Positions 35,201 to 57,500 of a stretch of 64,000 bases of DNA are shown in pieces. Both the position numbers and the translations under genes were made by a program. The stretch spans positions 8,384,001-8,448,000 of the forward strand of contig JASGJH010000001.1 in NCBI GenBank assembly GCA_047601445.1, written 5' to 3'. The first letter of the stretch is position 1. Each line of letters begins with the position of its first letter. This DNA comes from Myxococcales bacterium (GTDB taxonomy: Bacteria > Myxococcota_A > Polyangia > Polyangiales > DASUME01). Below the pieces are notes generated by a model. That model was not told the origin of the DNA, did not search any database, and saw only the letters and a program-made list of their open reading frames with translations.

Positions 35201-37159
35201 GCGCGCCCAGCGACTTCACGATCGCAGCGGGCACGCCGCTCGGCTTTGTTCAGGGCCTGTCGGCGTCCAGCGTGACGCTCGGCTCGGCTGCATCTACCAC
35301 GGTCGACCTCACGGTGACTGCTCCGGTGGCAGCCTACGGAGACAACGCGCTGAGCATGACCGCGGGCAGCGCCCAGAGCGGGCAAGTGACGGGCAGCGCA
35401 ACACTGAGCGTGGTGTGCGCTCATCAGGCGCCGCTGTTGCAGGTCAACCCGGGTTCGTTGCACGGCTTGGCGGGCAGCGCGCTCGTCTTCACGGCGACGG
35501 TCTCGAACGCGGATGTGGGGTGTCCGGCCCAGGACATCGCCTTGAGCGCACTGCCGATCAAGGGCTTCTCGGCGGTTTCTGCGCCGACCTCACTCACGCT
35601 CGCCAGCGGTGCGGGCGGCCAGGCCACATTCACCGTGACGTCGTCTGCCAATATGTCGGCTGGCTCGTACTCGGTCGCCTTCACCGCACAGGATCCCCGC
35701 GGAGCCAGCGCGCAAGCCAGCGCGGTCGCGGTCGTCGACCCGCCCCCGTGCGTCGCCAAGGCACCCGTCGTCCACCTGAGTCCGGCCAGCTTGGCTGGGC
35801 ATCCGGGCGATCAGAACTCCTACCTGGCCAGCGTCGATAACCTCGACTCGAGCACCTGCGAACCCGCGGGCTTTCGGCTCTCGGTATTCGGAGACGCGAC
35901 CTTCACCACGGCCGTGGAACCAAATGAGCTGACGCTCGCGCCAGGTCAGTCGAGCGCAGCGTTTTCGGTGAAGGTCACCGCGCCCTCGGATGCGCCGCTC
36001 GGGCCGAGCTCCTTTTCGTTGGTCGCGACCCGAGTGCAGAGCGCAGGTTCGCAGAACGACAGTGGCAGCGCCGATCTGCTCTACGACGTCTCCTCCGCGC
36101 CCTGTCTCGCCGGCACGCCGACGCTCGTGGTCGATCCGGTCGGTCGGAGTGGAACGGGCGTCGCCCTCACGTACCGTGTCGCGGTCACCAGTCATGCACG
36201 CGGAACCGAGTGTCCGAGCGAGAGCATCACGCTGGCGGCGCCGACCACGGCGGAATCTCGCAACCAAGCTCTCTGCGGTTCTGCTCGGGCTCGAAGCCGG
36301 AACGACGCAGACGGCGACACTCACGCTCACGCCCACGGGCAACGCCAGCGAGGGGCCGCACGAAGTGTTGGTGAGCGCAACGTCGGATAGCGGAGAGCTC
36401 ACCGCCACGGCCAGCTACCAGCTCGATTCAGCGGGCTGTTCGCGCTCTGTGCCCGAGCTAGTCGCGGTCGCATCGCTGCAAGAGGTACACGCGGCCGGCG
36501 CCATCGCGACCTACTCCTTGACGCTGGAGAACCTCGACTCCGCGGGCTGCGCCGACGGCGTGTTCGATCTCTCGAGCGAGCTCGGCGCGGAATGGTCGCT
36601 GGTCGCCGCACCAGTGACGCTGGCTCCCGGCGCCAAGACGAGCTTGCTCGTGAGCGTCAGCTCGCCCTCCACGGAGCCGGTCGGCACGACTGCCTTTGCG
36701 GTGACAGCGAGCCAGCGCAGTGATCCGGCCTTCAGCGCGAGCGAGCTGCTCGACTACACCATCGTGGCGGCCGCGCCGGATGCCGGCGTGGGGCCGAAGG
36801 ACGCTGGCGTGGAGCCCCTGGATGCTGCGGTGGGCATGGATGCGGGCGACGCGCTGGAGGACGCTGGTGTCGATGCGAGCGTCGGCGATGCCACGAACGA
36901 GCGTCCGGCCAACCCGGAGGCGGACGCGATGACCGGCGGAGCGCATGACGCGGGGAGCACGCCATCGGTTCCCGACATGCACACGGATACGGGCCCCGAC
37001 GACCAGAACGACGAGCATGATGCCGGCCCAGACAAATCGAGTACCCAGGGGCACGGTGGCTGCGCAGTCGCCGAACCCGGCCGAGGAAGGTTGAGTGAGC
37101 TCTTGGGAATCGTGACGTTGGCCCTCGCATTCGGCCTTCGACGCAGACGCGTCGTATGA
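29218..37159 (+). CDS. Giant zinc metalloprotease (M11 gametolysin / M6-like) with about 18 Ig-like NEW3-type repeats and a MYXO-CTERM-type tail; one-base frameshift at about 36253
   Basis: Lipobox AAVCSC; HELGHNLGLKH and DTMG Met-turn; YYVEYRQP; ~100-aa repeats C.R..P...SQ.G..G..L.Y...TNND...C. Removing one G in GCG-G-AAT joins it to ORF 35990..37159, which ends GGCAVA..TM..RRRR. Confidence 0.85.
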
Positions 37160-39655: not shown

Positions 39656-40558
39656 ATGGTGATGCACCTCCTCACGGCGATCCTCCTCGCGGCCTCGGTT
39701 GCGGCACCAGCATGGGCCCAGGATGCGAGGGCGGCGCCCGCTGCTGCCAGTGCGGACGCGGAAGCCCAGGCATACAGAGCGCAGCTGGTCGAGGCCCGCG
39801 CAAAAATCGACCGCCAGTTGGCCGAGGCGCGAGCGGAGCGGAAGAGGGCGAGCTTGGTAGCGCCCGCCGTGGGCTTGGCCGGCAGTGTCGGTGCGCTCGG
39901 CGTCTTGAGTCTCGTGTTCCTCACGTATCCGGGGTACCCAGAACATGCGGGATCGATCCTGATCGCCTCGACGGTACCGGCGGTGACCCTGGTCGGCAGC
40001 GGCGTCTTCTTCAGGCTACGGAGGAAACATCACAGGGGAGCTGGTCGCGCGATCGCAGCACTCGAAACCCAGCGTACGGTACTCGATGCCCGCCTGAGAG
40101 ACACGAGTCGAGAAGGCCGATTGGCTGCGGATCGCGTAGAAGCTGCGGCTCGCGTGCGCCTGGCCGAGGTTGACGCTCGCCGGCTCGAGCTCCAGCGCGA
40201 GCAACACGGCTATTCCTACGCGGGGCCCATGGTCTTGGTGGCAACTGGCACGATGGCGGCCGCTACCTTCGCGCTCTGGTCGTTCACTGTCTGGCTGAGG
40301 GAGTATGCGTTCAGCGAGTACCCCGAAGAGTATTCGGATGACTCCAAGCGTTTGGTGCGAGGCATGGCGGCGGGTTCGCTCGCGGGGATCGCGTTGGCAG
40401 CGGGAGGTGGCCTGTGGTTTCGCTCGAGCCGTCGCGCCCGGGCGCGTCTTGCACCTGAACTCCAGAAGCTCGAAGTCGAGCGCAACGGGCTGCAGATGCA
40501 CATCGCACCTCAGCTTGGCCCCACGAGCTTGGGATTCATGCTTCAAGGCCGCTTTTGA
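39656..40558 (+). CDS. Secreted/membrane hypothetical protein with two coiled-coil + hydrophobic-hairpin units and a C-terminal GRF
   Basis: Signal peptide ..APAWA; two similar Gly/Ala-rich helix pairs; ends IAPQLGPTSLGFMLQGRF. Confidence 0.7.
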   Translation: MVMHLLTAILLAASVAAPAWAQDARAAPAAASADAEAQAYRAQLVEARAKIDRQLAEARAERKRASLVAPAVGLAGSVGALGVLSLVFLTYPGYPEHAGSILIASTVPAVTLVGSGVFFRLRRKHHRGAGRAIAALETQRTVLDARLRDTSREGRLAADRVEAAARVRLAEVDARRLELQREQHGYSYAGPMVLVATGTMAAATFALWSFTVWLREYAFSEYPEEYSDDSKRLVRGMAAGSLAGIALAAGGGLWFRSSRRARARLAPELQKLEVERNGLQMHIAPQLGPTSLGFMLQGRF

Positions 40559-40671
40559 CGGGCTGAGCAGGCCGCGCTCATGATTTCATCCCACAAACTT
40601 CAAGCCTGAGATGCTGGCCTCAACGACCGTGAATCGTACCCTTGCGCTGTCGCTTGACCTGGGGAGGATTC

Positions 40672-41313
40672 ATGGAGAGAGCCAGTGCAGTTCGCGCGCT
40701 TGCCGTGTCCTTTTGTACGCTGATCGCCTGTACGCACTCGGAGCGCCCAAGCCCGACTGCCACTTGCCTCGCTCCTTCGTCTGGACCCGACGCCTGCGAG
40801 GATCAGATTTGCCTCGAGGAGCAACAGACCCTGACCGTCGACAGCCACCAGGCTTCCGATGGCCAGTTCAACTGCCGCGGTTGCAAGGACCCAGACGTGC
40901 TCTCCAGAGATGACCGCCTCGAGAATGCCTTCGTCACGTTCAGCACGCCGGACCTCGAGGTCCACCTGACCTTCGACAATCGCGTGTCCCTCGACCTCAC
41001 GCTCGAGAACCTGCGCAAGTACGCCGGCGACGCGAGCGGCACCTACCACGTGCAGGGCGGGGGCATGGGCTTTGCGTTCGTTCCGTTCGAAGTCGCCTCC
41101 TACACCGGGGGACGCCTTCGGGTCCGCTTCGACGCCTCCCTCGGGACCTTCAGCTATGACGGCGAACGCACCCCCTACAGCTGCGACGTCGTGATCGGGG
41201 GCCAAACGGTCCCCTCCGTGTGCACCAAGATGACGTGCGGCTACCAGACCCAGGCGGGTGGTCACCCGGTCGAGTTGGCGGTGGACCTCGCGGGCGAGCT
41301 CGCCTTCTACTGA
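40672..41313 (+). CDS. Uncharacterised Cys-rich lipoprotein (paralog of 59850..60494)
   Basis: RBS GGAGG; lipobox TLIAC; GC3-rich codons. Confidence 0.75.
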   Translation: MERASAVRALAVSFCTLIACTHSERPSPTATCLAPSSGPDACEDQICLEEQQTLTVDSHQASDGQFNCRGCKDPDVLSRDDRLENAFVTFSTPDLEVHLTFDNRVSLDLTLENLRKYAGDASGTYHVQGGGMGFAFVPFEVASYTGGRLRVRFDASLGTFSYDGERTPYSCDVVIGGQTVPSVCTKMTCGYQTQAGGHPVELAVDLAGELAFY

Positions 41314-41404
41314 GGCACCCCGGACCACGTCGACGGCGGGCACCCTGAAAATTCGTGCGGCGCGTTTCATCAATGGGTCCCCTTCGGGTGACTCACCTAC
41401 CGCC

Positions 41405-41953
41405 ATGCGTATCCCCCAACGTTTCCTTTTGTCGCTCGTCGTCGCGCTGTGGTTCGCTGCCTGCGGTGACGACGGCGGCTACGACTCGCCCCAGACCTGC
41501 CAGCTCGAGTGCGAGCGCGCGGCGCAGTGCTCGCCCCGGACCGACCCGCGTGCCTGTCGCGACCAGTGTGCATACCCGTCCAGGCCGTCACCGCCACCCT
41601 TGAGCCCGCGCTACCTGGATGCCGTGCGCCGCTGCCTGGCCACGATCTCCTGCGATGTGGCGAGTCTGGGCGGTGCGAGCGACACCTGCGCCCGCGACGC
41701 CGCGCTCAGCCTCGAGCCGTCGAAGCCCGCGAGCGACCTGTGCCGGCGTGCTGTCCGCGCGGATGAGCTGTGCCGCGTGAACACGTTTTCCAGCAGCGCC
41801 TGCCTCGAGGAGGTCAAGATCTACGACGACGAGGTGCTGCGCCGAGCAGCGCGCTGTTACGACGGTGCGTGCGTGGATCAGTCGCGGTGTCTGGAGTACG
41901 TTTTCGGCTATCCGTACCCGTACGTCTATCCGTATCCGCGGGAGATCCGCTGA
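41405..41953 (+). CDS. Cys-rich helical lipoprotein with a Tyr-Pro tail
   Basis: Lipobox FAAC; two Cys-spaced helical repeats; C-terminus GYPYPYVYPYPREIR. Confidence 0.72.
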   Translation: MRIPQRFLLSLVVALWFAACGDDGGYDSPQTCQLECERAAQCSPRTDPRACRDQCAYPSRPSPPPLSPRYLDAVRRCLATISCDVASLGGASDTCARDAALSLEPSKPASDLCRRAVRADELCRVNTFSSSACLEEVKIYDDEVLRRAARCYDGACVDQSRCLEYVFGYPYPYVYPYPREIR

Positions 41954-42011
41954 GCGGGCGTCTTCGGCGACCCCGGCCATCGTCGGGCTGCCCCGCGGCC
42001 GTAAGAAATTC

Positions 42012-42042
42012 TGAACCGGTTTGAACCGACCTGGACTCTAGG
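42012..42042 (+). promoter_or_regulatory. Putative ECF sigma promoter, copy 1
   Basis: TGAACCG-N17-CTCTAGG, 6 nt before ATG 42049; a second TGAACCG at 42022. Confidence 0.6.
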
Positions 42043-42048
42043 GACGGC

Positions 42049-44428
42049 ATGGGTTCGTGTCGGATTCGGTCGAAGCGGGCGCTGGCGAGCAGGACGGCGC
42101 TCGTCATGGCGCTCGGTCTCGCCGCCTGCGGGGAGGGCGAGGCGCCTTCTTCGGCGGCACCGGGCGCGCCGCCGGGGGCGCCCCACCAGGATTCGGACGA
42201 GATTGCCGGCGAAGTCACCGAAGACGCCGGACCTCCGAGCTTCGGTTGCGAGGCCAGACCCCCCGCGGGATTCATCACCCAGTGCTCGGGCTGCCATACG
42301 CTCGGGGGGACGAACCAGGGCGGAAAAATCCCAGACCTGCGGATGTTCGCCGGCACCGAGGCCGAGTTCGTGACCCAGGTGCGTCGCGGTGGCGGAGGGA
42401 TGCCGGCGTTTTCGGAAGCCAAGCTGAGCGACGCGGGACTGCACGAGGTCTACACCTTCCTCCGACAGGGCGACCCCGGGGCGCAGTCGGGTCAAGCGGG
42501 CGGCTCCGGCGGCGAGCAAAACTTCGGGCTAGGCAACGTCAGTCCGCTGTTCGGGGAGAATACGGCCTTGGCTGTGAGCTTCCTGCGCGACGACGGCGTG
42601 TTGATCACGCGAGGCGCGGGCCGCGTGCGTGGGCGTCACGAGCTCGAGGGGACGTACGGACCGTTTGGTCCGCTCTACTTCGAAGGACGCACCTTCGGCT
42701 TCGTGATCGAGGACTTCACGGTGCGCGGCGAGAATCGCATCGTGGTGAGCTATCTGCCGCTGGCGCGTCCGCAAGACAAGACCAACTTTCGCGCCTTCAA
42801 GATCTACGGCGATGGCAACGTCTTTCACGCCAACACGGGCATGGACTCGGATACGCCGCTGCCTTCGCTCGCGCAGGCAGGCAGCGACCCGGCGCAGGAA
42901 TACGCGACCCGCATCGCGGCCTTTGCCCGGGTGCAATCCCATGAGGTCAAAGGCAACGCGCGCACGGGGAAGCCCCTGCAGGCGGGCGAGCTGTTCGAGT
43001 TCGAGTTCGGTGTGTTCATCGAGCCCTCGGCCGTGCGCGCCAACAGTCGAACCGCCTATTACACGGATACCTTCCGCTACCGCGTGGGCCAGGGCGGTCT
43101 CACGATGGAGAACGCCGACACCAGCGGCCAGCTCGGGCCCACGATGGACGCGCAGCTCGGCGGTGCCACCACCGTCGCCTGGGCCTACGCCGAACCGGAG
43201 CTGTACTTCTCCCAACTGGCGTCGAACACTCAGCACGAGCACGTGCAGGCGTTCGTGGATGGCCGCAGGCTGTTTCACACGGACTTCGACACAGGGGCCC
43301 ACAGCGAAGCGGGCAATCCGGCGTTCGACGCCCAAGCCCACAAACTCGGACCGCTATTCGTGAGCCATGCGTGCGTGAACTGCCACGTGCGCAACGGTGG
43401 AGGCGAGACCCTGGTGGGCAGCTTGAGCGAGACCAGCACGATGGCGTTCAAGCTGTACGATGCGGGGGCGGAGCTCGGCAATCAGCTGCAGCTGCAGGAA
43501 GGATTGGCGCGCTCGGTCGCGCCGGAGCAGCGCGAGGTCTCGTTGTCCGACGGAACGCAAATGCTGTCACGTCCGACCTTCGAGGTGCAGGACAAAACCG
43601 GGCGGGAGCTCGCGTACTCGGCGCGTGTGGCGCGTCGCCTGGTGGGGCTCGGGCTGCTCGAAGCGATCGACGAGACCACCCTCCTTTCACGGGCCGATCC
43701 GCAAGACTGCGATGGCGATGGGATCTCGGGCAGGCCGCATCTGGTGGCCGACCCGGAGCGCGGCGTGCTGCGGGTGGGGCGCTTTGGTTGGCGCGCCGAA
43801 AAGGTGAGCGTCGAGCATCAGGTGGCCGACGCGTTGTCGGCAGACCTCGGCGTGTCCTCCCGCGTGCTGCCTGGCAGCGCGCAGGCAGCCGGAGCGGGCG
43901 GGGCCGCTGGCGCGCAGAACGTCGAGCTCGACGATGATGGCCTGCGCCGCCTCACCACGTACATGCGCCTGCTCGGCGTGCCACCGCAGCGCGCGGCGGA
44001 CAGCCCCACCGTGATGCGCGGCGAAACGGTGTTTCACGAGGTGGGTTGTGCGAACTGTCACGTGTCGGCGCTGACCACCGGCAGCTCCCATCCTTTCATC
44101 GAACTGCGTGGGCAGTCGATCCGGCCGTACACGGATTTGCTGCTGCATGATCTGGGGCCCGATCTCAGCCGATGCCAGCGGCCTGCCGGCCCGCGAAGGC
44201 GTGGAGCAGCCGGCCAGTGCGAGCGAGTGGCGCACCGCACCGCTGTGGGGCGTGGGGCTCTCGCAGACCGTGCAGGGCTACGTGGCGCTCCTGCACGACG
44301 GCCGAGCCCACAGCGTGCTCGAAGCGATTCTGTGGCACGGGGGCGAGGCTCAAGCGGCGCGCGAGCGGGTGGTCGCGCTGTCGAAGGCCGACCGTGAGGC
44401 TCTCGTGCAGTTCGTGGAATCGCTATGA
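42049..44428 (+). CDS. Di-heme oxidoreductase (DHOR) family lipoprotein with an extra N-terminal cytochrome c domain; one-base frameshift at about 44167
   Basis: Lipobox LAAC; three CxxCH motifs (CSGCH, CVNCH, CANCH); GRRLFHTDF, GLGLLEAI, GRFGWRA, PYTDLLLHD. Removing the A in CTC-A-GCC gives HDLGPDLAD and joins EWRTAPLWGVG..LLHDGRA..EAILWHGGEA. Confidence 0.87.
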
Positions 44429-45132
44429 GTTCTGTGGCTTACACTCGCGCGGACGTTCTTGCTACGCGTCGGCAGTCGGCTCGAGTAAGGTGGCCCGCCG
44501 TGGCTCCACCCCTGACGAGTCGAGCGCCCTCGGACTTTGGCCTGCGGGCCGATCCGTCCGCTGCGTCGGCCGGGATGTCCGGCCGCGAGCAAGACGACAA
44601 GGCGCGTGTGCGGCAGGTCGAGGCCGTGGAGTCTTCCGAGGGCTTGGATACGGCCGCGGTGTTCCGACGCTACGCGCCCTATGTAGCCAAGGTTGGACTG
44701 CGCATCCTGGGGCGGCGCGATGAGCTCGATGACTTCGTGCAAGATGTCTTCGTCACGGTCCATCGCAAGCTCGACTCGCTGCGCGATGTGGCCGCGTTGA
44801 AGCACTGGTTGGCCACCCTGGCGGTTCATGAGGCGACGCGCAGACTGCGGCGTCGCAAGTTGCGTGCGCTGTTGGGCATGGGCTCGGTGCCGGACTACGC
44901 GGATGCCGCAGACGCCTCGGCTTCACCCGAGCAGCGCGCGCTGTTGGCGCAGGTCTTCTTGGCGCTCGAGGCGCTGCCAGCAGACGAGCACGTGGCTTGG
45001 TCCCTGCGCTACATCGAGGGCGAGACCATGGAGCGCGTGGCGGAGCTGTGCGCCTGCTCGCTCTCCACCGCGAAGCGCCGTGTGGCGGGGGCCGAAAAGG
45101 CGCTCGAAAAGCGGGGACTAAGCCATGTCTGA
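44425..45132 (+). CDS. ECF RNA polymerase sigma factor
   Basis: Region 2 DDFVQDVFV..LKHWL; region 4 LRYIEGETMERVAELCACSLSTAKRRV. ATGA-coupled to the upstream gene; true start may be further downstream. Confidence 0.9.
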   Translation: MSSVAYTRADVLATRRQSARVRWPAVAPPLTSRAPSDFGLRADPSAASAGMSGREQDDKARVRQVEAVESSEGLDTAAVFRRYAPYVAKVGLRILGRRDELDDFVQDVFVTVHRKLDSLRDVAALKHWLATLAVHEATRRLRRRKLRALLGMGSVPDYADAADASASPEQRALLAQVFLALEALPADEHVAWSLRYIEGETMERVAELCACSLSTAKRRVAGAEKALEKRGLSHV

Positions 45133-46273
45133 GCGGCTTGCCGAGCGGCTATCCCAGGCGCGAGAGCACCTCGATGCGGACTTCGGATCCCGTGAGGTCG
45201 AGCGCGGACTCGCGGGTCTGCAGCAGCGGATTCGCCGGCGTCGTCGTGTGACGCAGGCGACAGGTGCGCTGACGGTGCTGACATTGCTGGTGGGCTCCTG
45301 GTTGCTCTTGCCGCGCGCGTCCGAGGTCGCTCGCCAATCCGAGAGCGGGCCGGCGGTGGCTGGCTCGCGTGCGCTGCGCACGGCAGACGGATTGGTTGCG
45401 CGCCTGCTTTCCCCGCAGACCGTGCTGCAGCTGGAACACGAGCGACAGGACGAGGTGAGCTTGCAGCTGGAGCACGGCAGCGGTCACTTCGAGGTCACGC
45501 GTAACCCGCGGCGGCGCTATCGCGTGCGCGCGGGACAAGTCGACGTGGAAGTACTGGGCACCGCCTTTGAGGTCACCAGACAGGCAGCAGGCGCCAGAGT
45601 TCGTGTGGAGCACGGCCTGGTGCGCGTGCGCTGGCCCAGCGGCGAGCAGCTCTTGCACGCTGGAGAGAGCGGCGAGTTTCCTCCCGTCGTGTCCGCGCCC
45701 GTGGCCGCTGCCAGCGAGCCCGTGCAGGAGGTCGAAGCGAGTGTGTCCGCCCGCGAGCCAATCCAAGACGCGGACCTGCTCGTCGATCCGTCGCTGCGCT
45801 CTACTGTGCTCGCCCGGGACCGCTCCCGTGAGCGCTGGCGTGCACTGGAGCGCGCGGGCAAGCATCGCGAAGCATTCGGGTCCCTGGGCGAACGGCCCGT
45901 CGAAGACTTGGCCGGCCTGCTGCTCGCTGCCGATGCCGCGCGCCTGTCCGGACATCCCCAGCAGGCGGCGACGTACCTGCAACGGCTGATGCGTCGCTAC
46001 CCGCGCACCGCTCCGGCACGCCTGGCCGCCTTCACCCTGGGGCGCCTAGCGCTGCGCGAGCTCTCGGATCCTGCGCTCGCCGCCCGCAGCTTCGCGCGGG
46101 CCTATGCGCTCGATCCGAAGGGCCCCTTGGCCGAAGACGCGCTGGCACGGGAGGCCGAGGCCTACCACCGCGCGGGCGACTTGGGACGGGCCCGAAAGGC
46201 TGCTACGCGCTACATCGAGCAGTTCCCAGATGGCGTTCGGCGCGACGACATTTCCCGCTATCTCGCGCCATGA
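45125..46273 (+). CDS. FecR-family anti-sigma/transducer with a C-terminal TPR
   Basis: Single TM helix; LEHGSGHFEV..RYRVRAGQVDVEVLGTAFEV..VRVEHGLVRV; C-terminal helical repeats ending ..RYIEQFPDG. Confidence 0.88.
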   Translation: MSERLAERLSQAREHLDADFGSREVERGLAGLQQRIRRRRRVTQATGALTVLTLLVGSWLLLPRASEVARQSESGPAVAGSRALRTADGLVARLLSPQTVLQLEHERQDEVSLQLEHGSGHFEVTRNPRRRYRVRAGQVDVEVLGTAFEVTRQAAGARVRVEHGLVRVRWPSGEQLLHAGESGEFPPVVSAPVAAASEPVQEVEASVSAREPIQDADLLVDPSLRSTVLARDRSRERWRALERAGKHREAFGSLGERPVEDLAGLLLAADAARLSGHPQQAATYLQRLMRRYPRTAPARLAAFTLGRLALRELSDPALAARSFARAYALDPKGPLAEDALAREAEAYHRAGDLGRARKAATRYIEQFPDGVRRDDISRYLAP

Positions 46274-46301
46274 GCCGCAGCGCGCCAGTGCGCTCCCAGC
46301 A

Positions 46302-47321
46302 GTGGCTCGCGGTCTGGCCCGCCTGCTCCGGAGCCAGACGTGGGGGCTCTTGAGTTTGCTTTGGCTGTGGGTAGCCCATGCTCAAGCGCAGGCCGACACG
46401 GGATCTCACAGGCGCGTCACGATCACCTTCACGAGCTGTGAGGTCCCATCGCCGTCCGAGGTGCGCGCGCTGCTGGCGATCGAGCTGCGCGAGGACCTGC
46501 TGCCCGACGGCACCGGCGAGCTCGAAACGGGCGGGGCCGCCCGCGAGCAACGAGCTGACTACCACGTGCAGGTGCAGTGCAGCGGACACGAGGCTCAGGT
46601 GACCGTGCGCGAGACCGCTGCCACGCGAACTATCGCTCTCGCCAAGGAGCCCGTGGAACTGCGCGCACGCCTGCTCGCGCTGGCCATCGCCGAGCAAGTC
46701 AGTCCGGCTTCGGAGCCGGTGCCCACCAAGGCACAGACAGCCACCACGGAGCCCGCCATCGTGCAGCCCGATCCGCAAGCTGTTGCCCCGCTTCCACGCT
46801 CGACGCCGCGCGCGTCCGCCGCCGAACACTTCGCCTGGGCCGCCCTGCAGCTGCAGGCGAGTCCCTTGCTCGGTCCGGGTGTCACGCTCGGGCTCTCACA
46901 GCGGATTTGGCGCCTCCTTTCCTGGTCGAGCAGTCTCTCCTACAGCTTCGCACGCAGCTCCCTCGACGACGGTGAACTGCGCGTGCAACAGACCTCCGTG
47001 AACACAGGACCTGCGCTGCACCTGGCCTTCAGCGACCTCGTGCTGGAGCTGGGCGCTGGCATGCGGGCCGGCTGGCTCGGACTGCGCGGTGAGCCCGACG
47101 ACGCGGCCCGCGTGCGCGGCAAACGCGTGGACACGTGGCTCGCAGGGCCGTCCCTGTTCGGCGCGCTGTTCGTAAACGCGGGCAAGCGCGGCTTCGGGAT
47201 GCTGGCGCTCGAGCTCGCCTATACGCTGCGCAAGGTACACGCCGATGTTCAAGGAGGCGGAGGACGCACGCTCTCTGCACTATGGGGTGCGGCTTCCCTG
47301 GGGGGAGGTTTCGCGTGGTGA
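46302..47321 (+). CDS. Secreted protein with a C-terminal beta-barrel-like domain
   Basis: Signal ending AHAQA; N-terminal alpha/beta domain; Pro-rich linker; about 8 amphipathic strands; terminal Trp (GGGFAW). GTG start inferred. Confidence 0.65.
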   Translation: MARGLARLLRSQTWGLLSLLWLWVAHAQAQADTGSHRRVTITFTSCEVPSPSEVRALLAIELREDLLPDGTGELETGGAAREQRADYHVQVQCSGHEAQVTVRETAATRTIALAKEPVELRARLLALAIAEQVSPASEPVPTKAQTATTEPAIVQPDPQAVAPLPRSTPRASAAEHFAWAALQLQASPLLGPGVTLGLSQRIWRLLSWSSSLSYSFARSSLDDGELRVQQTSVNTGPALHLAFSDLVLELGAGMRAGWLGLRGEPDDAARVRGKRVDTWLAGPSLFGALFVNAGKRGFGMLALELAYTLRKVHADVQGGGGRTLSALWGAASLGGGFAW

Positions 47322-48256
47322 GGGCGCTCGCGTGCCGGTCGTCGGTCCCGTGGGCTGCGCTCGCGTTGGTGCTCTCCGGCTGCGCGCAGCTCGAGGCCGT
47401 GGTGCTCGTGGTGCGCGACGCGAATGTCGATGAGCCGGCGATCGACGCAGCGACGGAGCCGTCGGATGCAGGCGACGCTGGGTCCCCCGACGCGGGCCGA
47501 GACGCAGGGCCCGACACACGCGGCGTGTGCAGGAGCGGAGGCAGCAAGGACGGCTTCTACGAGACCTTCGACGGACCTGCACTGGACCCGACGCGCTGGC
47601 TCGTCGCCCAGGGCCGCCTCGAGTTCGCCGGCCGAATGGCCCAGGGCGGCTTCCTGGCCGAGAACGTCCGCGTGGAAGGCGGTTCACTCGTGCTCACCGT
47701 GCACGGAGACCTGCACGCTGGCGGACGACGCACGGGGGCTGCCATCGTGACCCGCGATCTGTTCGCGTCGGCGACGTATCAGGCCCAGGGGCACCTGGTC
47801 GGTCCGCCTGGTGTGGAGTTCGCGCTGGCGTCGCTGCGCGATGACGATCGTGAAGGTGGCATCGACATCGCGACTCCGGGCCTGGAGGCTGACCGAGCGA
47901 GCTACGCGCGAGTCCACATGCGCAGCCGCGACGCAGCGGGCACGAGCGAGACACAGTTCGCCTTGGCCGAGACCCTCGACGATGGCGCGAGTCACATCCT
48001 GCGCTTCGATTGGTACACCACGGCCCAGAGCGCGGTGCGCTTCTGGGTCGACGACATGCCGCGCTCTCAACTGGATGAGCATCTGCCGATGCGAGCTGGC
48101 CGCATGTGGCTCCTTGCCTGGGTGCCGGGCGAGGCAGCGGCCGACTTCGACACGGTCGAGATTCGCATCGAGAATGCCTTCGTCACCCCGTTCGGCAATA
48201 GTGGAGATTTATGCCAGGACGGCGAGCTCTCCGGGCCTGGACTGGCACCTCCGTAG
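47318..48256 (+). CDS. GH16-like lipoprotein lacking the catalytic glutamates
   Basis: Lipobox LSGC; FYETFDG..LDPTRW, ENVRVEGGSLVL, TGAAI, H.LRFDW..VRFWVDD jelly-roll pattern. The active-site strand reads GGIDIATP instead of EIDIxE. GTGA overlap with the upstream stop. Confidence 0.7.
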   Translation: MRALACRSSVPWAALALVLSGCAQLEAVVLVVRDANVDEPAIDAATEPSDAGDAGSPDAGRDAGPDTRGVCRSGGSKDGFYETFDGPALDPTRWLVAQGRLEFAGRMAQGGFLAENVRVEGGSLVLTVHGDLHAGGRRTGAAIVTRDLFASATYQAQGHLVGPPGVEFALASLRDDDREGGIDIATPGLEADRASYARVHMRSRDAAGTSETQFALAETLDDGASHILRFDWYTTAQSAVRFWVDDMPRSQLDEHLPMRAGRMWLLAWVPGEAAADFDTVEIRIENAFVTPFGNSGDLCQDGELSGPGLAPP

Positions 48257-48271
48257 GAACGCCACTTTTCC

Positions 48272-48303
48272 TGAACCGATCCGCACCTGCCCTGCCTCCT
48301 AGG
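48272..48303 (+). promoter_or_regulatory. Putative ECF sigma promoter, copy 2
   Basis: TGAACCG-N17-CTCCTAGG, 5 nt before ATG 48309. Confidence 0.65.
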
Positions 48304-48308
48304 CTCGC

Positions 48309-50105
48309 ATGCAGGCACCATCGCCAGTCACTGCCACGGCCCGTTCGCTTTTGGCGAGCGTGCTCGGGCTCTGTCTTGGGGCGTGCTCCGGATCCGTCGA
48401 GGGACCGCTGGGGCCGGGCGCTGACTTCAGCGCCTCCACGAGCGCGGCCCTGCTGGGGCGCACTGGCCCGCGCCGCCTGACCAACACGGAGTACGACAAC
48501 ACGGTGCGCGATCTCCTGGGCACCGAGCTCAACGTGGCCGCCAACTTCGTGGCCGAGGAGGCTGGTGGCTTCGACAACGTGGCTCAGGCACTCGGCATGA
48601 CCCCGAGCCAGTACGAGTCTTACTTCAACGCCGCCGAGACCCTATCGCACGAGCTGTTCGCGGACACTGCGCGCCGTGCGCAGGTCGTCTCGTGCAGCCC
48701 GACCGGGAGCGATGGCGGACCGTGCCTCGAGCAGTGGCTGTCCGAGTTCGGGGGCCGAGTCTTTCGACGCCCTCTGGCGGCCGAAGAGAAAGCGAGCCTC
48801 AAGCAGGCCTTCGGGCGCGCGCTCGCGCTGGGCGAGGCGCCGATGGCAAGTGTGGAGCATGTGCTCGTTGCCATGCTCTCGTCGCCGCAGTTCCTCTATC
48901 GCATCGAGACCGGTGCCGACGTCCAAGCAGTCGTGTCCGCCCGCGAACGAAGCACGAACGCGGGCACGTCAGCCGGCGAGCAAGGTGCCGCGAACGACGG
49001 ACGGGTGTTGCTGGACAGCTACGCGCTGGCCTCCCGTCTCTCGTACTTTCTCTGGAGCACCATGCCCGACGCGGCCCTGTTTGCGAAGGCCGAGGACGGC
49101 TCGCTCATGGATCCCGTGGTGCTTCGCGCAGAGCTCGCGCGCATGCTCGACGATCCGCGTGCCGGCTCCTTGCTGGACAACTTCGCCGCGCAGTGGCTGA
49201 GCTGGCGCGAGCTCGCCCAGCACAAGGTGCTCGCGGCCCGCTACCCCGAGTTCGATGACGCCCTGCGAGACTCGATGCTGAAGGAAGCGCGAGCCTACGT
49301 GTCGGAATTTCTATTCGAGGACCGGCCCCTCAAGGACTTCCTGCGAGCCCAGCTGAACTTCGTGGATCGACGACTCAGCCAACTCTACCAACTCGATCTG
49401 GCCCTGCCGTCGTCCGAGGAACTCGTGCGCGTCGAAGCAGGCGGGTCCGCCTGTGAGCCTGGCGTCGACAACCCTAACGGCGACCGCCGTGGCTACCTCG
49501 GCCTCGCGGCGTTTCTCACGGTGTCCTCGTTCGCCCAGCGCACCTCGCCCACGCTGCGCGCCAAGTGGGTGCTCGAGGAGCTCATGTGCAGCGTCGTCCC
49601 CCCGCCGCCACCCAACGTCACAGCTCAACTCGAGGACACCGCGAACGCTGCCGCCAGCATCGAGAACGTGCGCGAGCGCCTGGAGCTACACCGCAGCGAT
49701 CCGGGTTGCGCGAGCTGTCACGCGCGGCTCGATCCGATCGGGCTCGGTCTGGAGTCGTTCGACGCCATCGGTCGGAGCCGCACGCACTACGAGAACGGGG
49801 ATTCGATCGACACCCTCGGTGAGCTGCCGGATGGGCGCACCTTCGATGGACCGGTGGAGCTCTCCGCCATCCTGGCCGACGATCCACGCTTCGAGCCCTG
49901 CGTGGCGCGCAAGCTCTTGACCTACGCCCTCGGCCGCACCCTCGGCAGCGAGCCCGACCTCGTGGCGCACACCGTGGCCTCCTACAAGCCGCAGGGCACC
50001 CTGCGCGCGATGATCGAGAGCATCGTGCTTGGCGACGCCTTCCGGTACCAGGCCCAGTCGACGCAGGCGGAGCCGCCCGCGCGCAACGCAGGGAGTGCAC
50101 CATGA
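48309..50105 (+). CDS. DUF1592-containing protein (DUF1587/1595/1592/1588/1585; planctomycete cytochrome-c-like)
   Basis: RRLTNTEYDNTVRDLLG, RVFRRPL, SPQFLYR, LASRLSYFLWSTMPD, TSPTLRAKWV, CASCH..DPIG..LESFDAIG, YALGR; lipobox LGAC. Confidence 0.92.
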   Translation: MQAPSPVTATARSLLASVLGLCLGACSGSVEGPLGPGADFSASTSAALLGRTGPRRLTNTEYDNTVRDLLGTELNVAANFVAEEAGGFDNVAQALGMTPSQYESYFNAAETLSHELFADTARRAQVVSCSPTGSDGGPCLEQWLSEFGGRVFRRPLAAEEKASLKQAFGRALALGEAPMASVEHVLVAMLSSPQFLYRIETGADVQAVVSARERSTNAGTSAGEQGAANDGRVLLDSYALASRLSYFLWSTMPDAALFAKAEDGSLMDPVVLRAELARMLDDPRAGSLLDNFAAQWLSWRELAQHKVLAARYPEFDDALRDSMLKEARAYVSEFLFEDRPLKDFLRAQLNFVDRRLSQLYQLDLALPSSEELVRVEAGGSACEPGVDNPNGDRRGYLGLAAFLTVSSFAQRTSPTLRAKWVLEELMCSVVPPPPPNVTAQLEDTANAAASIENVRERLELHRSDPGCASCHARLDPIGLGLESFDAIGRSRTHYENGDSIDTLGELPDGRTFDGPVELSAILADDPRFEPCVARKLLTYALGRTLGSEPDLVAHTVASYKPQGTLRAMIESIVLGDAFRYQAQSTQAEPPARNAGSAP

Positions 50106-51574
50106 CCAGGCCCCAGCACAGCTTCTCGCGCCGCACGCTCCTGCGTGGCGTCGGTGTGTGTCTCGCACTGCCTTATCTCGAAAGCTTGGCCCCGCGCTCA
50201 CTTGCTTCGGCGCAAGCCGCGCCCGCCAAGCGCTTCATCGCCAGCTACTTCCCGAATGGCGCCGCCGCCGACTACTGGCCCGTGAAAGGCAGTGGCGCGG
50301 GCTGGACACTCTCGCCGCTGCTGGCGCCGCTCGCCGCCCACAAACGCAGGCTCGTCGTCTTTTCCAACCTGGAGAACTACAGTCCGATGCAGGACAACCA
50401 GGGCGTGGAGCCGAGCCATGCGCGCCTGTGCGGGGCGTTTCTTACCTGCGTCGACTCCGACGCCGTGCGCGAGAAGCTCAAGGTGGAGATGGCGAATGGC
50501 ATCTCCATGGACCAGGTGATCGCCGCGCAGATGAAGACCACGCTGCCTTCGCTGGAGCTCGGTCTTTCCACCCTCAATAGCTACGAAGACGGTCGCCATC
50601 CGTCGCTCTCCCGCAGCATCGCGTGGGCGAGCACGACTCAGCCGCTCTACAAGGAGGTCAATCCCCAGGCCGTGTTCGATCGTCTGGTGGCCGCCGGGGC
50701 GGTGGACGCGAGCGGGGCGGCGGACCCCCAAGTGGCCGCGCAGGCAGCCAGGCGCAAGGCGCTCAAGCTGTCGGCCCTGGACTTCGTGCTCGAGAGCGCC
50801 CGCGGTCTGAGCGGCAAGCTCGGGCGCGAAGACAAGCCCAAGCTCGAGGAGTTCTTGAGCTCGGTGCGAAGCCTGGAAGAGCGCGTGCGCGGACTCTCGG
50901 ACGCCATCGCGCAGCAGAGCGCGCCCATGTGTGAGGTGATGGATCGCCCGCCGCGAGCCTACGCCGTCAACGTCAGCGAGGGCTACGATCGCGGCACCCA
51001 CGCCGCCGTGATGAACGACCTCATCGTGATGGCACTGCGCTGCGACGTGACCCGCGTGATTACGCACATGCTCGACGACGCCCGCAGCGACTTCGTGTAC
51101 GACCACCTGATCAACCGCAAGTTCAGCGCCGAGGGCTCTACCGAAGGCTCCGGCAAGGTGGGTGGCTTTCACGGACTGCAGCACGCCGGTGACAGCAACG
51201 ACGGCTACGCGACCATCAACTGGTGGTTCAGCCAGCAGATGGCCGAGCTATGCAGCAAGCTGGAGGCAGTGCAGGAGGGGGAGGGGAGCCTGCTCGATCA
51301 CACCCTCATCCTGTACGGCGGCGCCATGCATGGCAGCGATCACGACGGCCGACCCCTGCCCATGGCCCTCATCGGCGGCAACGGCGCGGGCATCCGCACC
51401 GATCAGCACGTGGACTTCAGCGCCAGCGCGGCCGGGCGCCCCCTGCGGGATCTCTATTTCACCATCTTGAACGGCTACTTCGGCCTCGATGTACCGAGCT
51501 TCGGCGAGCATGTGGCGGGGATTCCCAACAAGCTGATCAGCGAAATTCTCGAGCTGACCCTGCCTTTTTTCTGA
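50102..51574 (+). CDS. DUF1552 (HXXSHH) family protein, Tat-exported
   Basis: SRRTLLRG..LALPYLESL Tat leader; YFPNG; SMDQVIA; SLELG; NPQAVFDRL; ALRCDVTRV; FHGLQH; SLLDHT. Confidence 0.92.
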   Translation: MTRPQHSFSRRTLLRGVGVCLALPYLESLAPRSLASAQAAPAKRFIASYFPNGAAADYWPVKGSGAGWTLSPLLAPLAAHKRRLVVFSNLENYSPMQDNQGVEPSHARLCGAFLTCVDSDAVREKLKVEMANGISMDQVIAAQMKTTLPSLELGLSTLNSYEDGRHPSLSRSIAWASTTQPLYKEVNPQAVFDRLVAAGAVDASGAADPQVAAQAARRKALKLSALDFVLESARGLSGKLGREDKPKLEEFLSSVRSLEERVRGLSDAIAQQSAPMCEVMDRPPRAYAVNVSEGYDRGTHAAVMNDLIVMALRCDVTRVITHMLDDARSDFVYDHLINRKFSAEGSTEGSGKVGGFHGLQHAGDSNDGYATINWWFSQQMAELCSKLEAVQEGEGSLLDHTLILYGGAMHGSDHDGRPLPMALIGGNGAGIRTDQHVDFSASAAGRPLRDLYFTILNGYFGLDVPSFGEHVAGIPNKLISEILELTLPFF

Positions 51575-51603
51575 ACCGCTTTTGGCCTTCCTGCCCTCCT
51601 AGG
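51572..51603 (+). promoter_or_regulatory. Putative ECF sigma promoter, copy 3
   Basis: TGAACCG-N17-CTCCTAGG, 5 nt before ATG 51609; geometry identical to copy 2. Confidence 0.65.
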
Positions 51604-51608
51604 AGGGC

Positions 51609-52586
51609 ATGCGCACCCTCTTCCTCGCCTGCTGCCTCTCTCTCGTCGCCTGCACGGATGCCGACTCTCCTGGGGAATCGCTCGATGCCGGGTCTCCCCC
51701 CACCAACGACGGTGGCAAGGAGGAGGACGACGACACGGCTCACGACGCTGCTCCCGAGGACACCTCAGACGATCCGGGCGAACAAGACGCCGGTCGCGAC
51801 GCGGGCAAGCCGGACGGCAAATCCGACGCGGGCGCGGGCCAAGACCTGCCCGGTTGGAAGCTCGTGTGGAACGACGAGTTCGACGGTCCTGCCGGCACCG
51901 TGCCCGACAAGACCCGCTGGGTCCCCGAGAACAAAGGGGACGGCTTCGGCAACAACCAATTGGAGTTCGACACCAATCGCGCCGAAAACGCCGCGCTCGA
52001 CGGCAAGGGGCAGTTGATCATCACCGCCCGCAAGGAAGAGTACATGGGCCGCCACTACACCTCGGCGCGCCTCAAGACCCAGGGCAAGTTCGAGCACAGC
52101 TACGGCCGCTACGAAGCGCGCATGCAGATCCCCTTCGGCCAGGGCATGTGGCCCGCCTTCTGGATGCTCGGCACGAACATCGGAAGTGCGGGTTGGCCCG
52201 ACTGCGGGGAGATCGACATCATGGAGAACATCGGCCGCGAGCCCACGCTGGTGCACGGCACGCTGCACGGCCCTGGCTACTCGGGCGGCAACGGCATCGG
52301 CGCCTCCTCCTCACTGCCCAAGGACGCCCACTTCAGCGACGCCTTCCACGTGTACGCCATCGAGTGGGAGAAGGAGGTCGTGCGCTGGTATGTCGACGGC
52401 GAGCTGTATCAGACCCGCACTCCCAAGGATCTGCCGGGTCAAAGTAAGTGGGTCTACGATCACTCGTTCTTCATCCTGCTGAACTTGGCCGTCGGCGGGC
52501 AGTGGCCGGGCAATCCCGACAACACCACGACGTTCCCGCAACAGCTCAAGGTGGACTACCTGCGGGTCTACGATCGCATGCCCTGA
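51609..52586 (+). CDS. GH16 endo-beta-1,3-glucanase (laminarinase-type) lipoprotein
   Basis: Lipobox LVAC; WKLVWNDEFDG, YTSARL, GMWPAFWMLG, WPDCGEIDIMEN (intact ExDxxE), FHVYAIEW, LNLAVGG.WPG. Confidence 0.95.
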   Translation: MRTLFLACCLSLVACTDADSPGESLDAGSPPTNDGGKEEDDDTAHDAAPEDTSDDPGEQDAGRDAGKPDGKSDAGAGQDLPGWKLVWNDEFDGPAGTVPDKTRWVPENKGDGFGNNQLEFDTNRAENAALDGKGQLIITARKEEYMGRHYTSARLKTQGKFEHSYGRYEARMQIPFGQGMWPAFWMLGTNIGSAGWPDCGEIDIMENIGREPTLVHGTLHGPGYSGGNGIGASSSLPKDAHFSDAFHVYAIEWEKEVVRWYVDGELYQTRTPKDLPGQSKWVYDHSFFILLNLAVGGQWPGNPDNTTTFPQQLKVDYLRVYDRMP

Positions 52587-52591
52587 ACGCT

Positions 52592-52609
52592 CCTACCCGC
52601 TTGGGTAGG
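52592..52609 (+). terminator. Stem-loop after the GH16 gene
   Basis: CCTACCC-GCTT-GGGTAGG starting 6 nt after the stop; no U-tract. Confidence 0.4.
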
Positions 52610-52696
52610 GCTGGCGTTGGGGAGGGTGTTCGGAGTGCGAAAGCATCGGCGCACGCCCCCAACATCGCGTACATCAGGGCCCACCAGGCCCAACGC

Positions 52697-53458
52697 ATGC
52701 GTCGTATCTTCCTCGCGCTCTTCACCGCCATTCTGTTCCTTTCAAGCTTTCCACTCGGCGCAGAGGCCGAGGACACCCAAGACGACGAGGCCCGTGCCCT
52801 GTTTGAAGCAGGCCTGGTCGCCTATGACAGTCAGCGCTTCGAGAGCGCGCTGATGTACTTTCGTCGCTCCCTCGCCTTGAGTGGCCGCGCCAAGCTGCAT
52901 TACAACGTGGGCCTTGCTCTCGAGCGCCTCGGGCGCGCTGAAGAAGCGATCGATAGCTATTCGCTCTACCTGCAGGCCATCCCCGACGCTGCAAATCGCC
53001 TCGAGGTCGAGGGGCGCATTGGATCGCTCGAGAAATGGGTCCCAGAGTCGAAGCCGGGCGCCGTCCCCGAGGCCGTCCAAAGCCCGCCGACTGAAGTGGT
53101 CCAACCGCCGGCTTCCGAGCAAGCGCCGACCGCGGCTACGCAGGGTCCAACGCGCAGACGCCGTACGGGCCTTGCGCTGGTGGCGAGCGGCGGAGCACTC
53201 CTCGCAGCCGGTGGCGTGTTCGTCGGCCTGGCACTGCGCGCGCAACACGAAGTCGAAGCTGCGCCGCAGGGGGGCTACTGGCAGCACGTCGCATCGGACA
53301 ACGACCGTGCCCTCACCTTTTCCGTGGTGGGCTTTTCCCTGCTCGGCACCGGTGTCGTCAGCGCCGTGCTGGGTGGCGGACTCTGGTTTCGCAATCGTCA
53401 CATCACGGTCGACGTCGCCCTCGCACCGCGCGCGTTTTGCCTGCAAGGACGTTTCTGA
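52697..53458 (+). CDS. TPR protein with a hydrophobic hairpin and C-terminal GRF
   Basis: Signal peptide; EARALFEAG..LHYNVGLALERLGR.EEAI..Y..YL; Gly/Ala-rich helix pair; ends CLQGRF. Confidence 0.82.
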   Translation: MRRIFLALFTAILFLSSFPLGAEAEDTQDDEARALFEAGLVAYDSQRFESALMYFRRSLALSGRAKLHYNVGLALERLGRAEEAIDSYSLYLQAIPDAANRLEVEGRIGSLEKWVPESKPGAVPEAVQSPPTEVVQPPASEQAPTAATQGPTRRRRTGLALVASGGALLAAGGVFVGLALRAQHEVEAAPQGGYWQHVASDNDRALTFSVVGFSLLGTGVVSAVLGGGLWFRNRHITVDVALAPRAFCLQGRF

Positions 53459-55167
53459 TGAGCACGCGGTTCGAGCTCGCGCGACCCCACGCGCTGTTTC
53501 TGGGTGTCACCGCACTGGCGCTGAGCGCCTGCACGCCCACCATTCCCGAGGGGCGCTTCGCTTGCGATGACCACCACGCATGTCCGCCCCGCTTCGAGTG
53601 TCGCGAGGACAACCTGTGCTACTCGCGCGACTTCAAGCGCGACGATCACGGCGGCGACGGCATGGATGGCGGCACCGACGCTTCCAACCTGCCGACCGAC
53701 GCGGGCGATCAGCCCCAATCTTCCGGTGACGGCGGTGATGCCATGCCCGACGCGGCCGTGGACCTGGGAACGGCCCCCCTGCGCGTGGTGCACGCCGCGA
53801 TCGCCGACGACGTGAATAACCTGATGCTCCAGGTGGATGAGCTCCCCGCCTTTCCACTCGCCTACGGCGACGTGAGCGCCTTCGTCCCTGGCGAACCACG
53901 CAGGGTGCGCATTCGCGTCAGCGACGCAGGCCAGGTCGTGAGGCTGGATACGCAGTTGGAGTTGACGGCCACCTCCGCCATGGTCCTGCTGAGCGCGCCC
54001 GCGGGGCTGAGCATGCGCGTGATCCCGGTGCCGGCTCCGCCGGTCGATGGCTCCCGTATCGCTGCCGTCAACGCCATGTCGGTTGGCCTGTCCGTGGTGT
54101 TCGATCAGCAAGACGCGATGCCCGACCCGAAGAGTCTGAACGCTCTCGAAGCGGAGCCCACGCTGGATCTCGACGGCGTTAGCAAGCGCTTGCTCGTTGG
54201 CTTCGATCAGGGCGGCTTTATCGCAGGCTTCTCCGGATTGTCGCTGGACTCGGGATCCATCTTGGTGCTGCTCGGTGACTCCCGGCGTCCGCTCATCGAC
54301 CCGCGCGGTCCACGCGCTGTGGTCCTGCACGGCCGAGACGCGCTCTCGCTCTTGTCCGATCCGCTGGTGACCCTGGTCCACTTGTCCACGGCGCCCGTTC
54401 GAGCGATCGAAAACGAGGCCGCGGCCGCCGTCTACCCGATCACGCTGTGCGTCACGGATCGCTTCCAGCGTCTGAACACCGGAGACTTTCAGTTCAGTGA
54501 GATCACGCCACAGATCCCCGTGTCGATCGAAAACGGGGATCGCTTCTACGTGCTGCCAGTGGCCGAGTCGGATTGCAGTGCTCGGCCCGTCGCCGAGTTT
54601 GCCGTGGCGAGTGCCAACCTTCAGAAGGGACGCAGATACCTCGTTCCATTCACCGGCGACAAGGACCGCATGGTCATCCCCGACGGCGGCCTCCCGCAGG
54701 CGGAGGCCGGGCCCGTGCCCAACCTGGTGGCATTCCCCGAAGCAGATCGCGAAGGGATCTCGGAGAACTCACGCCTGGTGACGTTTGGACATGCGGCCAT
54801 GCTGACCACGGAGCCAGACACGCTGCTTCGCTTCACGCCCCCGGCACCGAACGCCGCCGTGATGTTGGATCGCGCCGACACCGCAGGCCAAGAGCAGGCG
54901 GGCAGCGGACAGGATGCGGGCAGCGACGAGCAGCAGTCGATCATGATGGAGTACATTTCTGCGAAGGACCTGCCGTCAGGCGCTCAGCTGGCCAGGCTCC
55001 ATTTCGACGTGACCACCCACGGCAGCCGCTCGGTGTTCATGATCGCAACGGACCCGCTCGTCTGGCACGCGAACACCGTCCCGGAGCTGATGCTGACCGT
55101 GATCGAGACCTTCGACGACCAACCCTGGACGTCCAACGTCGTTCAAGGAACCCTGGAACCGAACTAG
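53458..55167 (+). CDS. Lipoprotein with an N-terminal Cys knot and DUF4397-like beta domains
   Basis: TGATG coupling; lipobox LSAC; FACDDHHACPPRFECREDNLC; repeats LRVVHAA, IAAVNA, VTLVHLS, VTFGHAA. Confidence 0.68.
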   Translation: MSTRFELARPHALFLGVTALALSACTPTIPEGRFACDDHHACPPRFECREDNLCYSRDFKRDDHGGDGMDGGTDASNLPTDAGDQPQSSGDGGDAMPDAAVDLGTAPLRVVHAAIADDVNNLMLQVDELPAFPLAYGDVSAFVPGEPRRVRIRVSDAGQVVRLDTQLELTATSAMVLLSAPAGLSMRVIPVPAPPVDGSRIAAVNAMSVGLSVVFDQQDAMPDPKSLNALEAEPTLDLDGVSKRLLVGFDQGGFIAGFSGLSLDSGSILVLLGDSRRPLIDPRGPRAVVLHGRDALSLLSDPLVTLVHLSTAPVRAIENEAAAAVYPITLCVTDRFQRLNTGDFQFSEITPQIPVSIENGDRFYVLPVAESDCSARPVAEFAVASANLQKGRRYLVPFTGDKDRMVIPDGGLPQAEAGPVPNLVAFPEADREGISENSRLVTFGHAAMLTTEPDTLLRFTPPAPNAAVMLDRADTAGQEQAGSGQDAGSDEQQSIMMEYISAKDLPSGAQLARLHFDVTTHGSRSVFMIATDPLVWHANTVPELMLTVIETFDDQPWTSNVVQGTLEPN

Positions 55168-55298
55168 GGATTGGAACGGGATCCGGCAAGAAAAAACCCA
55201 TTCGACTGGATGTTTGCAGTCAGCCTGCAGGCTTTTGAGCCATCGCTGGTCCATCCACTCTTGTCAGCCCGGGGGTTTTACGCATTGATGGCTGTCCC

Positions 55299-57389: not shown

Positions 57390-57500
57390 CCGACAGAACA
57401 GCCGATTTTTGATAGCGGGGCGAGGCCATTTACCTCTACAACCCGGGCGCGCCGGGCGTCGTCCGGTAGGTTGCCCATCGTCTCGGAGTGCCCTTCGCCC

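Follow-up and report, generated by a model that had tools for sequence, protein, structure and literature searches.

The stretch of DNA analysed here, called the window, comprises 64,000 nucleotides of contig JASGJH010000001.1 (positions 8,384,001 to 8,448,000) from the genome of a Myxococcales bacterium (9.5 Mb, 66% GC; label G000). It carries the gene of a sigma factor of the extracytoplasmic function (ECF) type within an operon that also encodes an anti-sigma factor resembling FecR and bearing tetratricopeptide (TPR) repeats, and two further transcription units follow downstream. A promoter-like site stands in front of each unit (Table 1). Only the Pfam domains Sigma70_r2 and Sigma70_r4_2 were found in the sigma factor, region 3 was absent and the best solved relative was RpoE; judged by this domain content, the protein belongs to the ECF (group 4) sigma factors. 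Its closest named relatives were encoded by metagenome-assembled genomes of Polyangiales (67% identity). Signal peptides with a lipobox-like terminal cysteine begin at the ATGs behind all three sites. The di-haem oxidoreductase (DHOR) gene changes frame at 44160-44200, possibly by an assembly error, since 4/4 orthologues are intact. The exported protein encoded behind the anti-sigma factor had outer-membrane beta-barrel proteins as its nearest named clusters (0.86-0.88), which is a lead only. The last gene encodes an enzyme of glycoside hydrolase family 16 (GH16) that matched the beta-1,3-glucanase 2hyk with an E value of 5e-87. No Rfam match was obtained within 40000-56000.

Table 1. Predicted promoters and genes of the sigma factor locus (window coordinates)
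Feature	Coordinates	Strand	Remarks
Predicted promoter 1	42012..42049	+	-35 TGAACCG 42012-42018; -10 CTCT 42036-42039; predicted start 42048/42049; unit: DHOR-sigma-FecR/TPR-barrel-lipoprotein operon (autoregulation)
Predicted promoter 2	48272..48309	+	-35 TGAACCG; -10 CTCC 48296-48299; start predicted on the DUF1592-family ATG; unit: DUF1592-family gene and DUF1552 gene
Predicted promoter 3	51572..51609	+	-35 TGAACCG; -10 CTCC 51596-51599; start predicted on the GH16 ATG; unit: GH16 gene
Cytochrome c and di-haem oxidoreductase (DHOR) lipoprotein	42049..44428	+	Frame shift near 44160-44200
ECF sigma factor, regions 2 and 4	44425..45132	+	Start overlaps the DHOR stop
Anti-sigma factor, FecR-like, carrying TPR repeats	45125..46273	+	Hydrophobic segment close to the N terminus
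Exported protein specific to Myxococcota, possible small outer-membrane beta-barrel (lead)	46104..47321	+	Start uncertain
GH16-fold lipoprotein without both catalytic glutamates, candidate glycan sensor	47135..48256	+	Start uncertain
DUF1587/1592/1588/1595/1585 lipoprotein	48309..50105	+	
DUF1552 (HXXSHH) exported protein	50102..51574	+	
GH16 lipoprotein, catalytic motif intact	51609..52586	+	Closest solved structures are beta-1,3-glucanases

A preliminary description of the window, made from the sequence, had reported a bipartite motif at three places, and the copies at 42012, 48272 and 51572 were confirmed. All three read TGAACCG-N17-CTC(T/C), and 37 nt separate the first T from the A of the ATG in each of them. 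The identical spacing described for copies 2 and 3 holds, and copy 1, which had been set apart, has this geometry too. The copies differ in spacer sequence but agree in both boxes and in how far away the ATG lies, and counted from the first T, offset 36/37 falls on the C|A of CATG in 3/3 cases. At promoter 3 the DUF1552 gene stops at the TGA of TGAACCG. A second TGAACCG lies at 42022-42028 in the spacer of promoter 1, 10 nt downstream of the first, and has no -10 box at the proper distance.

Orthologous clusters were available from six genomes (G001, G002, G003, G006, G104 and G114). The site was present 5' of the DHOR gene in 3/3 orthologues with upstream DNA (G001, G002 and G006; the three others are cut by contig ends), 5' of the DUF1592-family gene in three of four (G003, G104 and G114, with a degenerate copy in G006), and 5' of the GH16 gene in one of three (G006, on a separate contig). 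In G104 and G114 the GH16 gene has no site and instead carries a Shine-Dalgarno sequence and an ATGA overlap with the DUF1552 gene. The G001 cluster is rearranged, and a site precedes the sigma gene and the relocated DHOR gene alike. An ATG followed at 36-37 nt in 7/8 orthologue sites. Several details that had been counted as parts of the motif did not hold in these sites. TAGG was absent from 8/8 and CCTG in the spacer was found in 0/8, and neither is core; the exact pattern TGAACC-N18-22-CTAG-N4-8-ATG, searched over 61 genomes, had no copy in nine genomes of the same genus, which likewise shows that TAGG is not core. The A/T-rich tract upstream was kept in 8/8 orthologue sites, but the T tract of copy 3 is coding sequence. 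GCATG recurred in 4/7 orthologue sites with a near ATG, but GC precedes the ATG in 14% of ordinary starts.

Overall, the sites travel with the clade of the window sigma factor across two families of the order. None of ten DUF1592-family paralogues in the host genome carried the site, and in five genomes of the same genus that lack an orthologue of the sigma factor, 18 homologous cargo genes were free of CTC-type sites; two of the checks of DHOR type possibly fell short of the gene start. One of these 18 genes has TGAACCG with a CAC-type -10. Two DHOR paralogues of the host genome and one of G004 were left out of the paralogue counts, as the 900-nt window searched may miss their starts. Two single sites were also noted. 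In G005 (contig C52, locus L276), a genome without a close match to the window sigma factor, a DUF1592-family gene is preceded by TGAACCG and a CAC-type -10, with an ATG at 39 nt. In G006 (contig C175, locus L260, 6400-6440) a near-site with an ATG at 35 nt precedes a sodium:dicarboxylate symporter gene near the promoter-bearing GH16 gene.

The sigma factor belongs to a large family, with 1864 relatives at an E value of 1e-30 among 8000 candidates scored. From a set of 109 sigma factors, 100 representatives with less than 90% identity were retained, and a FecR gene was at +1 in 72 of them. In an unbiased count of gapped words over the 95 representatives with sufficient upstream DNA, GAGCC-N18-CAC occurred in 36/95 upstream regions, compared with shuffle maxima of 11-14. 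The corresponding count in coding regions (27/92) reflects protein conservation and is no null. A matrix seeded on these sites found a site in 61/100 representatives and in 1.3% of 470 shuffles. The family promoter obtained de novo is TGAGCCG-N16-nCACT(A), of which the type in the window is a variant.

Covariation of the -35 box with the DNA-reading residues was determined with a -35 model neutral at the variable bases in 67/100 representatives above the 95% null, plus three clade members whose upstream DNA is truncated and which were entered manually by way of their DUF1592 site. Sigma factors with Ala at one column of the recognition helix had TGAGCC in 52/55 cases, those with Ser in 0/15. 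This Ser/Ala column had the highest mutual information with base 4 of the -35 box, and the seven rows of the window sigma clade (support 98/86) all had TG(A/G)ACC and CTC. The residue aligns to Gly168 of RpoE, a position listed as a determinant of base -33 (PMC7776599, Table S1), and -33 is base 4 of the -35 box in the 16-nt-spacer register. Lys171 was associated with C at -31. The window sigma factor has Ser at the Gly168 position, Arg at the Asn84 position and Lys at the Arg171 position. Other helix variants (for example at the loci L113, L117, L124, L133 and L135) go with TGACC(A/T)G, TGAGACG, TGACCCG and TGGGCCG and may form a small natural code. Some points weaken this part of the evidence. 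The Fisher P value of 4e-8 ignores kinship, and Ser is confined to about three lineages; 3/7 clade rows are those assigned by hand; the association of an acidic residue at Lys56 with A at -11 is weak (18/22 versus 28/48, P 0.06), and no clean residue rule was found for the -11 base.

The strict pattern TGAACCG-N16-18-CTC(C)TAG had three matches in the 9.5 Mb of the host genome, all within 10 kb. About 0.075 matches were expected, but the pattern was fitted to the copies and the significance is overstated. As a fairer test, a matrix was built solely from the eight sites of the six other genomes. The window sites ranked 2, 5 and 16 among the 74 sites of the host genome scoring at least 15 bits and were the three best of the seven that are followed in frame by a start codon after 34-60 nt. 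The bare consensus TG(A/G)ACC(A/G)-N17-CTC(C/T), on the other hand, occurred 37 times where 33.9 were expected, and only 4/37 matches had an ATG at 36-37 nt; position, not rarity, therefore carries the signal. A loose pattern run over 301 genomes was near background and uninformative by itself. The regulon looks local, with three promoters.

The sites have two boxes with 16-18-nt spacing, stand upstream of the operon of the sigma factor and are conserved together with it. Because of the phylogenetic footprinting, the family-wide autoregulatory motif and the covariation of the -35 box with the recognition helix, we regard it as very probable that they are ECF promoters read by the local sigma factor; the earlier assignment of the boxes as -35 and -10 elements of the sigma at 44425 is upheld on the same grounds.

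The preliminary description had also concluded that the mRNAs are leaderless, a term applied to messages with at most 5 nt before the start codon (PMC12754779). The geometry supports this, but the argument from the missing Shine-Dalgarno sequence is weak. All three sites have an ATG start and no usable Shine-Dalgarno sequence, with anti-Shine-Dalgarno duplex energies of -3.9, -2.4 and -3.3 kcal/mol compared with -7.5 kcal/mol for the DUF1552 gene. This is a poor discriminator in the host genome, where just 35% of the 2251 starts that are unambiguous attain -6 kcal/mol and a strong Shine-Dalgarno sequence is missing from about 65%. The register of the -10 box was therefore considered separately. 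Position 84 is Arg in 54/70 family rows, and offset 24 is C in 63/70. The change Asn84Arg favours C at -12 (summed 0.49, compared with 0.18 for G), while Asn favours G (PMC7776599, Dataset S3), and one family member has a canonical CGTCTA at the same offsets. From this rule and this member it follows that offset 24 corresponds to -12 and +1 to offset 36. Among the 42 family sites with the first start at 40 nt or beyond, or without one, a pyrimidine-purine step was present at offset 36 or 37 in 31, compared with 7-21 for other pairs and 29 for the pair at the start-codon cluster. Such a step is found at 67.3% of predicted promoters (PMC7776599). The predicted leader at the window sites is 0-2 nt, and transcription would start on the AUG or no more than two bases from it.

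In the host genome a sigmaA-type TAnnnT was found 6 nt before the ATG in 76/1571 starts, compared with about 9 at other distances, and this myxobacterium seems to make frequent use of leaderless messages and of very short leaders. A second rise of TAnnnT was observed 7-9 nt before the ATG (31, 36 and 48). In the family, the first in-frame start codon lay at 35-38 nt in 16/61 sites, at 39-45 nt in 29, at 46 nt or more in 13, and was missing in three. A start was thus within 45 nt in 45/61 family sites, leaving a leader of less than about 10 nt, and leaderless geometry was present in 10/11 clade sites; most of the family would be leaderless or have a leader too short for a Shine-Dalgarno sequence. 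In other clades, leaderless ECF transcripts were given as 0.2-5.2% (PMC7776599, with no deltaproteobacterial row in the part concerned), well below the predicted 10/11 of clade sites and 16/61 of family sites with leaderless geometry found here. Leaderless transcription by sigmaA has been proposed for myxobacterial pexR (PMC12754779), and in S. meliloti 171/171 leaderless starts use AUG (PMC3616915). If the window sites are promoters of the local sigma factor, they are probably leaderless.

The first alternative accepts the promoters and the sigma factor but holds that the working mRNAs are leadered, by an earlier start or by read-through. The GH16 ATG has AGGAGG 2 nt 5' of it, and the DHOR ATG has a weak AGGGA 5' of it at 4-5 nt. 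Scans for sigma70 promoters and terminators were at chance level and found no terminator between the three units, so that read-through could yield leadered messages. Further points count against leaderless transcription. Only the 16/61 family sites mentioned above have a start at 35-38 nt, and in 42/61 the first start is at 39 nt or beyond; the published likely transcription start would correspond to offsets 35/36, one base before the observed peak at 36/37; the G003 site is leadered, with a GTG at 53 nt and a Shine-Dalgarno sequence; and the degenerate DUF1592 site of G006 has a long leader. Against the alternative, the -10 register under the published rules sets +1 at offset 36, the pyrimidine-purine peak is at 36/37, the spacing of Shine-Dalgarno sequences in this genome is most often 5-9 nt and not 2, and promoter 1 has no upstream unit in the conserved cluster from which read-through could come. 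Leadered messages are therefore considered unlikely, and leaderless messages remain the preferred prediction.

The second alternative keeps the sites as ECF promoters but makes their main reader a different one of the roughly 100 sigma factors of the host, for instance a Ser-bearing paralogue or a factor like ECF17/SigL; 106 region-2 matches were counted in the genome. The -35 sequence TGAACC is shared by the unrelated groups ECF17, 33, 111, 209 and 258 (PMC7826278, supplement). ECF17, with SigL of M. tuberculosis, resembles the window system in this box and in autoregulation, but has CGT as its -10 instead of CTC(T/C), is actinobacterial and has a different anti-sigma factor (PMC7826278, supplement). 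The host genome has seven members of the family, and Leu-Ser-Thr occurs in the helix only of the local sigma factor and one paralogue. The paralogue at genome position 8877713 has Ser and a TGAACCG site of its own, which tells against the assignment to the local sigma factor. Its own -10, however, is GTACAA, and it differs from the local sigma factor at positions 56, 60, 80 and 84. The travelling of the sites with the window sigma clade, and the result for the 18 cargo genes with the reservation made there, also argue for the local sigma factor, and another reader is quite improbable. As a separate observation, the paralogues at G000 2197617, 5745706, 8475855, 8877713 and 4080237 each have their own upstream TGA(G/A)CCG-type site.

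The least probable explanation is that a transcription factor other than a sigma factor uses the motif as its operator, or that the motif is left over from local duplication and has no promoter function, as the repeated TGAACCG and a short palindrome in copy 1 and the background frequency of the bare consensus are outweighed by spacers that differ between fixed boxes and a fixed ATG distance, by the lack of overall dyad symmetry, by covariation with the DNA-reading residues of the sigma factor and by its retention in six other genomes ahead of genes that are not homologous.

The last gene of the first operon (47135-48256) encodes a lipoprotein with a predicted GH16 fold. The model had a predicted local distance difference test (pLDDT) score of 96.7, a Foldseek E value of 3e-14 and, compared with the beta-glucanase 1u0a, a Z score of 24.4 with a root mean square deviation of 2.0 over 201 residues. 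Language-model neighbours were GH16 at 0.96. The fold predicted from the single sequence had a pLDDT of 32, and comparisons to GH16 by sequence only were not significant; significance was reached only with feature and fold searches. At the two catalytic columns (E-x-D-x-(x)-E) Glu was present in 0/77 homologues, and an active hydrolase is not indicated. The gene follows the barrel gene in 5/5 orthologous clusters that were long enough. Because of the disabled GH16 fold and the intact beta-glucanase among the targets, the protein is read, tentatively, as a pseudoenzyme that may sense beta-glucan.

Taken together, it is likely that the three sites serve as promoters for the neighbouring ECF sigma factor, which is paired with FecR/TPR, with predicted leaderless mRNAs, a local regulon and possibly a glucan-type signal. 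The membrane-bound FecR/TPR anti-sigma factor would hold the sigma factor until a signal at the envelope frees it, and the freed sigma factor would then act at the three sites, transcribing both cargo units and, in a positive feedback, its own operon. The signal could be beta-glucan bound by the pseudo-GH16 lipoprotein and relayed through the small barrel to FecR/TPR, which is the least certain step. Any link of the DHOR, DUF1592 and DUF1552 proteins to glucans is hypothetical and the ligand of the pseudo-GH16 protein is putative, both of which speak against a glucan signal. The complete scheme, in which a dead GH16 protein, a barrel, FecR/TPR and an ECF sigma factor with three leaderless promoters would form a TonB-independent surface signalling system for beta-glucan, an Ala-to-Ser exchange would insulate it from paralogues, and the family would mostly use mRNAs that are leaderless or have leaders below 10 nt, is rather doubtful as a whole.

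In the FecI/FecR/FecA system and in Bacteroidetes ECF surface signalling at polysaccharide loci, an ECF sigma factor and a FecR-like membrane anti-sigma factor control nearby carbohydrate or redox genes in response to an outside ligand, much as is proposed for the window locus. In the operon of the present locus, however, the place of a TonB-dependent transducer is taken by the small protein resembling a barrel and by the GH16 lipoprotein without catalytic glutamates. The closest published group is ECF267, a myxobacterial group of a Sorangium/Chondromyces clade with an anti-sigma factor at +1 that is FecR-like and fused to TPR, no TonB-dependent receptor, one to three protein kinases nearby and a target promoter reported as not conserved (Casas-Pastor et al. 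2021, PMC7826278). The window locus likewise has a FecR-TPR anti-sigma factor at +1, and no TonB-dependent receptor was found by Pfam among 19 + 5 window proteins. It differs from ECF267 in the clear promoter of its family, in the barrel and pseudo-GH16 partners, which do not appear in the description of ECF267 in that paper, and in the kinases, as a simple motif check found no kinase catalytic-loop motif in 37 genes between 14 and 74 kb. The sigma factor is filed by its architecture as ECF267-like only, no kinase motif having been found among these genes. The local autoregulated regulon, the 16-18-nt spacer, the pyrimidine-purine start, the upstream A/T tract and the determinant positions Gly168, Asn84 and Arg171 agree with the general ECF code (Todor et al. 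2020, PMC7776599).

One relevant paper was found on ECF267, and none on leaderless transcription by ECF sigma factors in myxobacteria. In the searched part of the supplement text of PMC7826278, GAGCC, CACTA and leaderless had no match; its Tables S1-S5, which lie outside that text, may hold such promoters. The searched text and data of PMC7776599 had no match to TGAGCC, Sandaracinus or Deltaproteobacteria, and the searched part of Dataset S6 had none to dproNOG; Datasets S1 and S2 may hold such promoters. Autoregulated ECF sigma factors, local regulons and some leaderless mRNA are already well known, and what is new are the specifics: a promoter open to testing, together with a specificity switch of a single residue, in a large ECF family of myxobacteria without a conserved motif in the published classification. 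The motif lets local regulons be read from sequence, gives handles on DUF1592/DUF1552 and DHOR proteins and allows gene starts to be corrected. Should the pseudo-GH16 protein indeed act as the sensor, predatory soil bacteria would have in it a pseudoenzyme that serves as receptor for glucan from the cell walls of fungi or algae.

Some further features were observed. With its start overlapping the DHOR stop, the window sigma factor has a 60-residue N-terminal extension, and among the 61 family sigma factors with a site, 37 have the motif L-(R/H/T)-x-(V/I/L) in an unstructured N-terminal extension. Elsewhere in the window, 29218-37159 encodes an exported metallopeptidase of 2300 residues with many Ig-like repeats and an apparent frameshift near 36390, and 55299-57389 encodes a second, related peptidase; both have C-terminal sorting-like tails. 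Genes for molybdopterin oxidoreductases lie on opposite strands at 57471-59702 (+) and 61273-63498 (-).

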